Positions 1,218 through 1,524 of a stretch of DNA of 16,136 bases are shown piece after piece. The stretch is from a virus. The notes under the pieces are model-generated. The model made no database searches, was not told where the DNA came from, and saw nothing but the letters and a program-made list of their open reading frames with translations. Where the stretch lies: the IMG/VR virus record IMGVR_UViG_3300017991_000558; one strand, 5' to 3'. Position 1 is the stretch's first letter. Every line of letters begins with the position of its first letter. Made by a program: the position numbers and the translations under genes.

Positions 1218-1356
1218 GAGACGAGGACCTTGTGAGAGGCTTCAGAATCGTGGGTTCGATTCCCACATCAAGCTCCAACATTGCTTGATATGCCCAATGG
1301 CTGGGCACCTGACTTATAATCAGGCTCATCACAGGCTCTCCGACACGTCCCGTCTT
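1218..1356 (+). ncRNA. Y RNA-like (YrlA-type) tRNA-mimic RNA, module 1, with a circularly permuted tRNA-like domain. T-arm 1250-1266 (gtggg-ttcgatt-cccac). Acceptor 3' strand 1267-1273 (atcaagc) + UCCA. 5-nt loop. Acceptor 5' strand 1283-1289 (gcttgat). D-arm 1292-1306 (gccc-aatggct-gggc). Anticodon-like hairpin 1308-1324 (cctga-cttataa-tcagg). Closing helix 1218-1228/1347-1356 (gAGACG-A-GGAC / GTCC-CGTCTt) with a bulged A1224
   Basis: The 7/7 complementary acceptor strands occur in reversed (3' strand first) order, so this is not a canonical tRNA. It has a perfect T-loop and D-loop consensus and shares a conserved terminal helix with module 2. It lies upstream of a Ro60-like gene. Confidence 0.55.
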
Positions 1357-1366
1357 ATTTGATAAT

Positions 1367-1524
1367 TAGACGAGGTCCTACAGTGGAACTTCAGGATCCT
1401 CAGCCTATCAAGCTGAAGGTACGGGTTCGATTCCCGTCGCCCCCACCAGAGGGATAACAAGCTGGGGGCGTGGTGCAATGGTAGCACATCGCGATCGAGA
1501 CAGTTCTGCGCCCACGACCCGTCT
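1367..1524 (+). ncRNA. Y RNA-like (YrlA-type) tRNA-mimic RNA, module 2. T-arm 1421-1437 (acggg-ttcgatt-cccgt). Acceptor 3' strand 1438-1444 (cgccccc) + ACCA. 15-nt loop. Acceptor 5' strand 1464-1470 (gggggcg). D-arm 1473-1487 (gtgc-aatggta-gcac). Closing helix 1368-1377/1516-1524 (AGACG-A-GGTC / GACC-CGTCT) with bulged A1373
   Basis: Same permuted architecture as module 1. In the closing helix, A1227-T1348 in module 1 is T1376-A1517 here, a compensatory pair change that preserves the helix. A shared cttcag(a/g)at motif lies between the closing strand and the T-arm. Confidence 0.5.

Follow-up and report, generated by a model that had tools for sequence, protein, structure and literature searches.

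The 16,136-nucleotide (nt) stretch of DNA analysed here (the window; IMG/VR virus record IMGVR_UViG_3300017991_000558), whose positions are used as coordinates throughout, belongs to a 42-kb metagenomic contig that carries split RNA polymerase β and β′ genes upstream of the window region. At 1041-1524, on the + strand, lie three tandem modules, which we term M0 (1041-1171), M1 (1219-1355) and M2 (1368-1524), each combining a bulged stem with a tRNA-like domain. They are followed on the same strand by genes for an ARPP-domain protein, a divergent Ro60-like protein and a major-vault-protein-like (MVP-like) protein (Table 1). Both Y RNAs and Ro60 have been conserved in evolution, from bacteria to humans. 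We consider it highly probable that this region, in an uncultured large phage, encodes three Y-RNA-like RNAs in tandem, and that each has a tRNA-shaped domain and a bulged scaffold proposed to dock to Ro60.

M1 and M2 both have the order of a circularly permuted tRNA, i.e., a T arm, a 7-nt acceptor 3′ strand, NCCA, a loop, the exact 7-nt complement of that strand and a D arm. Each is closed by a helix of 5 base pairs (bp), a bulged A and 4 bp; in M1 a short helix lies between the closing strand AGACG-A-GGAC and the T arm. The T loops are UUCGAUU in both modules and the D loops (AAUGGCU in M1, AAUGGUA in M2) both contain GG, so that the contacts of a tRNA elbow (T54-A58, G18G19 with ψ55/C56) could form. 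M2 carries U8 and A14, and M1 carries A8. When both strands of the window were scanned for a T arm followed by a 7-nt strand with its complement within 4-60 nt, only the M1 and M2 sites were recovered, as against a mean of 0.07 in 300 shuffles (one shuffle gave 2). Minimum-free-energy folds returned the helices described, with z-scores of -4.8 for M1 and -2.6 for M2. In the orthologous region of a related locus (L004), which aligns with the window at 90% identity, the acceptor stem of M1 shows three double compensatory changes.

The third module, M0, encloses a tRNA called His(GTG) at 1068-1144 (ARAGORN; Rfam tRNA 51.6 bits, gathering score 29), which is the sole ordinary tRNA that ARAGORN and Rfam recognised in the window. 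Relative to M1 and M2, its outer helix has two double compensatory changes (GU/AC versus AC/GU). The enclosed domain has an anticodon loop AAGUGGA with A33, a C6-C67 mismatch and a 3′ end ACCC. In the L004 ortholog (7489-7563) the scaffold is 100% identical and the rest of the body is conserved, but the loop is CAAUCGA, and hence it is called Asp(ATC). Because of the A33, the C-C mismatch, the ACCC end and the different anticodon loop in the ortholog, the M0-enclosed tRNA is, judged by these features, probably not a normal decoder. The M0 anticodon loops are different in every phage.

An earlier, sequence-only reading of this DNA had described two permuted tRNA-like modules, had considered two reversed-order 7/7 complements very unlikely by chance and had taken an A-T versus T-A swap between the closing helices as compensatory. 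Every element it named (T arm, acceptor 3′ strand, NCCA, loop, complement and D arm) is present where it was placed, the shuffles bear out its estimate of chance, both the bulged A and the swap were confirmed in the sequences, and the folds recovered the closing helices. Its count of two fell short, however, since M0 around the "tRNA-His" was missed; likewise, although the features given for M1 are real, the anticodon arm at 1308-1324 and the exit of the stem at the variable-arm position had been overlooked.

Table 1. Features of the module array and of the genes that follow it in the window
Feature	Positions	Strand	Sequence or description
Module M0	1041-1171	+	Native-order tRNA-like domain; scaffold stem on acceptor ends
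M0 scaffold	1041-1050 with 1163-1171		AGGTG-A-GGAC / GTCC-CACCT; recognised by aligning the window with the L004 ortholog, and by fold
M0 extended helix after scaffold			AGGAATCTT / AGGATTCCT; then the same UUCAG junction
Spacer hairpin between M0 and M1	1184-1214	+	AGCTGGCG ... CGCCAGCT; read from sequence
Module M1	1219-1355	+	Permuted tRNA-like domain; scaffold stem at variable-arm position
M1 closing helix	1219-1228 with 1347-1355		AGACG-A-GGAC / GTCC-CGTCT
M1 T arm	1250-1266		GTGGG-TTCGATT-CCCAC
M1 acceptor 3′ strand	1267-1273		ATCAAGC
M1 TCCA	1274-1277		UCCA in RNA
M1 loop, 5 nt	1278-1282		ACATT
M1 acceptor 5′ strand	1283-1289		GCTTGAT; 7/7 complementary to ATCAAGC
M1 D arm	1292-1306		GCCC-AATGGCT-GGGC
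M1 anticodon-type arm, canonical	1308-1324		CCTGA-CTTATAA-TCAGG (loop CUUAUAA)
Module M2	1368-1524	+	YrlA order; scaffold stem in anticodon-stem position; 157 nt
M2 closing helix	1368-1377 with 1516-1524		AGACG-A-GGTC / GACC-CGTCT
M2 extended helix, 8 bp	1383-1390 with 1502-1509		
M2 V-type hairpin, 5′ of T arm	1400-1416		7-nt loop
M2 T arm	1421-1437		ACGGG-TTCGATT-CCCGT
M2 acceptor 3′ strand	1438-1444		CGCCCCC
M2 ACCA	1445-1448		
M2 loop, 15 nt	1449-1463		
M2 acceptor 5′ strand	1464-1470		GGGGGCG
M2 D arm	1473-1487		GTGC-AATGGTA-GCAC
GC-rich hairpin between RNA array and ARPP ribosome-binding site	1533-1562	+	AAGAGGCCCC ... GGGGCCTCTT; read from sequence
ARPP-domain protein, 355 amino acids	1579-2646	+	Pfam ARPP-1 2.5e-30, ARPP-2 2.7e-8
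Ro60-like protein, 518 amino acids	3060-4616	+	Helical-repeat ring domain and C-terminal vWA domain with DxSxS MIDAS motif
MVP-like protein, 871 amino acids	5097-7712	+	Pfam MVP_shoulder 4.4e-22, Vault_3 4.2e-10, Band_7 (Band-7/SPFH) 1.4e-6

The array belongs to a family. Homologs of the ARPP gene led to 70 further loci, and a Ro-like gene adjoins ARPP in about 50 loci (L001-L073). Twenty-five modules from 14 loci, folded by minimum free energy, have one common scaffold. Its first 5 bp are separated from 4 bp (GGNY/RNCC) by a 1-nt bulge on the 5′ strand, which is A or U; further in come an internal loop starting with CU, a helix of 7-10 bp and the junction UUYCAG(A)A. The consensus of the 5′ strand of the scaffold is NNNNG-(A/U)-GGNYCU. 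Beyond the junction the interior varies and takes five forms: a native-order tRNA, a permuted domain in the order T-acceptor-D-anticodon, a permuted domain in the order V-T-acceptor-D, a closed 12-bp hairpin into which the acceptor is lengthened (L005c and L006b), or a loop only. Members without a tRNA domain are L008, L010b and L014b.

Covariation of the helices across homologs, on which the sequence-only reading had relied, was measured on MAFFT alignments made without fitting to a structure, with slid partners and 500 shuffles as controls. For the M2-type modules (alignment A4), 89.8% of cells were paired, compared with 43-51% after sliding, and double changes were seen at 22 of 36 pairs (3-7 after sliding). 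For the M1-type modules (alignment A5), the corresponding values were 91.1% against 38-48%, and 25 of 34 pairs against 4-10. None of the 500 shuffles attained the observed values in either set. The alignment of M0-type modules (A6) was poor at the scaffold ends, and the scaffold statistics rest on the M1- and M2-type sets.

A covariance model built from the M2-type alignment (R1) scored 144.6 bits with M2 of the window and matched M0 over its full length at 49.7 bits. In 398 kb of sequence from 61 sources it gave 117 matches, all of them co-oriented with the Ro-like and ARPP genes, and full-length matches were present in at least 27 metagenomic phage loci. By a rough census, 53 of the R1 matches included about 21 with YrlA order, 13 with native order and 7 with M1 order. 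This model was far more sensitive than nhmmer with the 5′ half alone, which added few new members. A scan for the helix pattern gave, in its final form, 34 matches on the + strand and 6 on the - strand, compared with 1.2 in shuffles; a looser form gave 607 matches against 460 in shuffles, and a stricter one missed M0 and M2. The NCCA behind the acceptor 3′ strand is kept in M2-type modules of distant phages, in which the loop that follows varies, and M2 acceptor stems are almost always GGGG-rich. The anticodon loops of M1-type modules (CUUAUAA, CUUAAGA, CUUAA) are also conserved across distant phages, which points to descent of M1 from a class II tRNA such as tRNA-Leu(UAA), with its long variable arm where the scaffold leaves; position 8, however, is A.

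Two of the loci carry a further conserved element between the last module and ARPP (L005, 7858-7950; L006, 5858-5950). It is closed by AAGGCA-A-CGGC / GCCG-UGCCUU and has a bulged A and a CUUCAG motif with a different interior, and it may be another module type.

The protein encoded at 3060-4616 was modelled with AlphaFold (pLDDT 87.5, pTM 0.83), and the model gave a full-length fold match to solved Ro60 structures. The DxSxS motif is invariant among 24 sequences of its family. On the strength of the model, the protein is a Ro60 homolog by fold that lies far outside the known family by sequence. Bacterial Y RNAs, including those of phages, are found within 4 kb of Ro60 on the same strand (PMC4201824). 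Here M2 ends at 1524 and the open reading frame (ORF), a Ro60 by fold only, starts at 3060, both on the + strand and within the distance of about 4 kb.

For the comparison with YrlA we used Rfam RF02553 and the descriptions of Chen et al. (2014; PMC4201824) and Wang et al. (2018; bioRxiv 10.1101/312249). Like YrlA, the modules adjoin a Ro60 homolog in the same orientation, often with more than one Y RNA upstream, and their 5′ and 3′ ends pair in a stem. The YrlA order (5′ stem, V hairpin, T arm, loop-closed acceptor, D arm, 3′ stem), with canonical T and D loops, is that of M2 but not of M1 or M0. RF02553 matched M2-type orthologs in L004 (38.6 bits), L070 (34.4 bits) and L024 (28.6 and 26.6 bits) and, as a positive control, the intergenic stretch that immediately precedes the Ro gene of mycobacteriophage Bxz1 (32.5 bits). 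Conversely, R1 recovered the full-length Bxz1 YrlA with 37 bits, including the closing helix of 5 bp, bulged A and GG, so that the similarity is reciprocal, although below threshold. The sequence-only reading had proposed a YrlA-type Y RNA without knowledge of the Ro60 gene, and in this it was borne out by the order of M2, by the RF02553 matches of orthologs and by the agreement between R1 and Bxz1, but not by M1, which has a different permutation.

A 7-bp acceptor stem, as in M1 and M2, is also a feature of the YrlA of Mycobacterium smegmatis, which is a substrate of RNase P and acquires a CCA end (PMC4201824). There are also clear differences from YrlA. Its proposed contact with Rsr is a GNCGAAN0-1G motif near the 5′ end (PMC4201824), in place of which the array has G-(A/U)-GGNYCU. 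Conservation extends to both strands of the closing helix, of which the YrlA of Salmonella and M. smegmatis has a recognisable 5′ strand only. The NCCA is fully encoded, and M1 has an anticodon arm and a stem at the variable-arm position. The presumptive partner lies outside Pfam TROVE, ARPP is always adjacent, and no rtcB or rtcR context was seen.

M0 resembles Yrn1 of Deinococcus radiodurans, in which the order of the T and D elements is opposite to that of YrlA and an anticodon-like arm is present (PMC4201824). In both, the order is native and an "anticodon arm" separates the D-like arm from the T arm, and the Ro-binding helix of Yrn1, which replaces the acceptor stem, is likewise bulged and conserved on both strands. 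However, M0 holds a complete tRNA with its own 7-bp acceptor stem and NCC (the 51.6-bit Rfam match), whereas Yrn1 has a 6-nt loop and no clear D arm. Known phage Ro60 genes (those of mycobacteriophages such as Bxz1, with gp220, of Caulobacter phage CcrColossus, Bacillus phage G and phiLo) also have one or two Y-like RNAs directly upstream, but their products are ordinary Pfam TROVE and vWA_Ro60 members for which no ARPP partner has been described. The Ro60 of Thermus phage phiLo binds two upstream Y-like RNAs, Yrl1 and Yrl2, which are described as stem-bulge-stem RNAs with a CGAA motif and not as tRNA-containing arrays (PMC12135203). In a secondary summary (bioRxiv 10.1101/312249), the b7a-tRNA of Burroughs and Aravind (2016) adjoins a Band-7 gene and occasionally Rsr. 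As far as that summary goes, the tRNA-like M0 and the Band-7/MVP-like gene at 5097-7712 are comparable, but the window contains no RtcB and the MVP-like gene is confined to the closest relatives.

Our reading of the literature brought up no earlier example of the M1 topology, nor of an array that unites all three topologies. Permuted tRNA genes are present in algae (Cyanidioschyzon merolae and others), where the 3′ half lies upstream of the 5′ half with a short linker; the acceptor stem is matured by RNase P and 3′ processing, and the RNA is circularised and re-cut via bulge-helix-bulge splicing. The array shares with these genes the T arm, acceptor 3′ strand and CCA upstream of the 5′ half, and the short linker. 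Its ends, by contrast, are held in a long conserved stem of the protein-binding type, and M2 has no anticodon arm. A permuted tRNA gene of the bulge-helix-bulge type was rejected on both of these grounds and because, to our knowledge, bacteria and phages have no machinery for such splicing.

With covarying structures, a neighbour of Ro60 fold, linkage between gene and RNA, and reciprocal similarity to YrlA, the array most likely falls within the known Ro60/Y-RNA (YrlA) system, as a new branch, and does not constitute a system of a new kind; what is new is the divergent Ro60 clade, the presence of three tRNA topologies in one array, and the ARPP partner gene. We propose that the array is transcribed and processed into three RNAs, and that the bulged helix of each would be a docking site for the Ro60-like protein. 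The scaffold is joined in M0 to the acceptor ends of a tRNA in native order, as in Yrn1, in M1 at the variable-arm position of a permuted tRNA whose cloverleaf is complete and whose acceptor is closed by a loop, and in M2 at the anticodon-stem position of a domain in YrlA order. The resulting ribonucleoprotein (RNP) would display tRNA elbow, acceptor or anticodon surfaces to tRNA-recognising enzymes. Given the 7-bp acceptor stems and the conserved encoded NCCA, it is probable, by analogy with the YrlA of M. smegmatis, that RNase P nicks M1 and M2 and that trimming or repair produces a CCA end. The likely role would be surveillance or repair of tRNA or other RNA, or tRNA protection during infection, together with ARPP, as suggested by the constant presence of ARPP, by the genes for Tpt1, PARP and a CCA-adding enzyme in relatives, and by the tRNA array of L024.

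Several observations weigh against this interpretation. A search of the window with Rfam gave no YrlA or Y_RNA match for the modules even at E ≤ 10; the check with the YrlA covariance model that the sequence-only reading had suggested gave matches to orthologs (27-39 bits) but not to M2 of the window, which has a diverged D stem. The ortholog matches all fall under the RF02553 gathering score of 69, although a true YrlA, that of Bxz1, scores only 32.5 bits, so that this threshold excludes known phage members too. In place of the motif GNCGAAN0-1G, M1 and M2 have GACGAGG (one mismatch) and M0 has GGTGAGG. Because all the scores are below 69 and the motif is only approximated, we regard the family, from its sequences, as a diverged YrlA-type branch that lies outside the curated membership of RF02553. 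The Ro60-like protein matched no Pfam family at E ≤ 1, including TROVE (PF05731) and vWA_Ro60 (PF25045), in a search in which the control, the Ro protein gp220 of Bxz1, matched these two at 9.4e-50 and 4.3e-54; with hhalign, TROVE gave only a local match around the VKYR motif, with a probability of 10%. As there is no match to TROVE or vWA_Ro60, the RNA-binding mode could differ from that of known Ro60. In addition, the closest relatives have their modules at a shorter distance from ARPP than from the Ro-like gene, and the RNAs could therefore have ARPP, or yet another protein, as their direct partner. The M0 domains of some phages (L005 and L006) might be tRNA precursors. Finally, all of the loci are metagenomic.

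That the modules are tRNA genes in disguise is, in our judgement, quite unlikely. The helix around M0 would then be formed by the leader and trailer of a tRNA precursor, M1 and M2 would represent permuted genes, and the scaffold would be a mere processing signal; M1 and M2, either cut by RNase P and 3′-trimmed or circularised and re-cut, would yield decoding or two-piece tRNAs for phage translation. The 7-bp acceptor stems with encoded NCCA and the canonical T and D loops would fit, as would the M1 loop CUUAUAA, which has U33 and A37 and is unchanged in L004, and the distant M1-type loops CUUAAGA and CUUAA, which suit a class II tRNA-Leu(UAA) with its long variable arm at the exit of the M1 stem. 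Among relatives, L005 and L006 have M0 domains that are canonical tRNA-Met(CAU), with 72 bits, the modules of L024 lie within an array of more than 25 tRNA genes, and L011 has a gene for a CCA-adding enzyme nearby. However, M2 has no anticodon arm at all, position 8 of M1 is A and not U both in the window and in L004, and M0 of the window combines A33, a C-C mismatch and ACCC with an anticodon that differs in the otherwise identical body of its ortholog. Some members have no tRNA domain, or have an acceptor lengthened into the 12-bp closed hairpin. The scaffold (G-A/U-GGNYCU ... RNCCC) is also more conserved than a processing stem requires, and it co-varies across loci with the gene of Ro60 fold.

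We give a slim chance to a related proposal, in which M1-type modules are functional permuted class II tRNAs that RNase P nicking and trimming of the 3′ side to the encoded CCA would make two-piece and chargeable, with the anticodon UAU or UAA and the scaffold as variable arm, carried by the Ro60-like protein in a vault-like RNP. If M1 were such a working permuted tRNA, it would be the first outside eukaryotic algae. A chargeable M1 on the Ro60-like protein and ARPP, joined in some relatives by an MVP-like protein or PARP, would supply or repair tRNA during infection, and would provide a direct functional link between Ro60, vault-type proteins and translation.

It also seems improbable to us that the RNAs are free tRNA decoys for host tRNA-targeting nucleases or for effectors that modify or deplete tRNA, with the scaffold only stabilising them against exonucleases and the Ro-like protein not a partner. 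An arms race would predict anticodon-type loops that differ in every phage, as those of M0 do; the neighbouring genes in relatives include RNA-repair and ADP-ribose functions (Tpt1 and PARP in L010, the CCA-adding enzyme in L011), and protection from nucleases by a tRNA fold has been discussed by Chen et al. (PMC4201824). Free decoys would nevertheless leave unexplained a bulged helix conserved in sequence and common to modules with and without tRNA domains, as well as the strict linkage and co-orientation with the Ro-like/ARPP pair. A decoy tethered to the Ro-like protein, on the other hand, would be compatible with our interpretation.

Effectively refuted is the idea that M2 is the acceptor piece of a two-piece (permuted) transfer-messenger RNA (tmRNA). 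Partial Rfam matches to tmRNA_permuted (33.5 bits) and beta_tmRNA (28.7 bits), which extend from the T arm to the acceptor 5′ strand, fall short of the respective gathering scores (47 and 84) and are limited to the generic T-arm/acceptor part. ARAGORN, which detects permuted tmRNAs, found none, a full D arm is present, the 157-nt module has no tag reading frame or pseudoknots, and the same scaffold elsewhere holds interiors that are not tmRNA-like. An assembly artefact or decayed fragments of ordinary tRNAs, a concern that the sequence-only reading had raised and for which only the initial oddity of the reversed halves speaks, is refuted by an identical arrangement in three independent assemblies from different samples (L001, L002 and L003), by orthologs of 90% identity with compensatory changes, and by a family found in at least 27 loci.

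If the array indeed consists of Y-RNA-like RNAs, it bears on the question of what purpose the tRNA-like domain of bacterial YrlA serves. The locus family is a natural experiment, in which one scaffold has tRNA domains attached via three points side by side in one putative transcript unit. The scaffold occurs without tRNA in other phages, and the contrast would tell which surfaces must be displayed, making the question testable. Ro60-type proteins reach well beyond detection by Pfam TROVE and are tied to a conserved uncharacterised enzyme, ARPP. The occurrence of TROVE, MVP and PARP homologs beside small structured RNAs in large phages also bears on the origin of vault and Ro RNPs.

Two hairpins flank the modules on the 3′ side of M0 and M2. 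The stem of the spacer hairpin at 1184-1214 is preserved in L004 via changes on both sides (alignment A1), and it is possibly a processing element. The hairpin at 1533-1562, which is conserved in L004 with loop changes and has a weak T tail, is a possible terminator or attenuator, although it was not flagged by a terminator scan. A scan for sigma-70 promoters found none; the phage has its own split RNA polymerase genes.

ARPP, an uncharacterised protein predicted to be an enzyme, has been proposed to work on ribose moieties, and the contexts listed for it do not include pairing with a Ro60-like gene (PMC9503650). In close relatives of the window ARPP precedes the Ro-like gene, whereas in distant ones the Ro-like gene is directly upstream of ARPP. 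Among GenBank phages the pair was present in one record only, an uncultured 462-kb phage, and a megablast search with the entire window found nothing similar in GenBank phages. Scans of genome contigs and viral contigs with a single ARPP sequence found nothing, and an alignment query was needed. In the interval between the two genes (2647-3148), gene callers predict a - strand ORF of 123-124 amino acids in the window phage but a small + strand ORF of 87-128 amino acids in relatives; no interval ORF matched Pfam.

The MVP-like gene starts 500 nt downstream of the Ro60-like gene and stands beside the pair only in the closest relatives (L001-L003, and the contig end of L004); its product may be an accessory component. 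The locus family as a whole has homologs of three types of vault-particle protein (MVP, TROVE and PARP). In L010, genes for PARP (catalytic domain 4.4e-24, weak WGR) and the RNA 2′-phosphotransferase Tpt1 come right after the Ro60-like gene (4416-6395). In L011, genes for an NAD-dependent DNA ligase and a CCA-adding enzyme (PolyA_pol and tRNA_NucTran2_2) lie just upstream of the Ro-like gene, with a Cas12f/TnpB-like gene nearby (1-3875 and 11098-12192). In L024 (90-7330), the Ro-like/ARPP pair and the modules are embedded among the more than 25 tRNA genes, which were recognised by Rfam tRNA matches.

Farther downstream in the window, on the same strand, are genes for UDG, a helicase, a phosphoesterase and an ATP-dependent ligase. 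Split RNA polymerase genes are typical of large (jumbo) phages, and in L001, the source contig of the window, the β′- and β-like genes, with Rpb1 and Rpb2 domain matches, occupy 1287-4551. There are two separate genes of the UDG superfamily, one at 5230-5838 of L001 and the other at 7918-8817 of the window.

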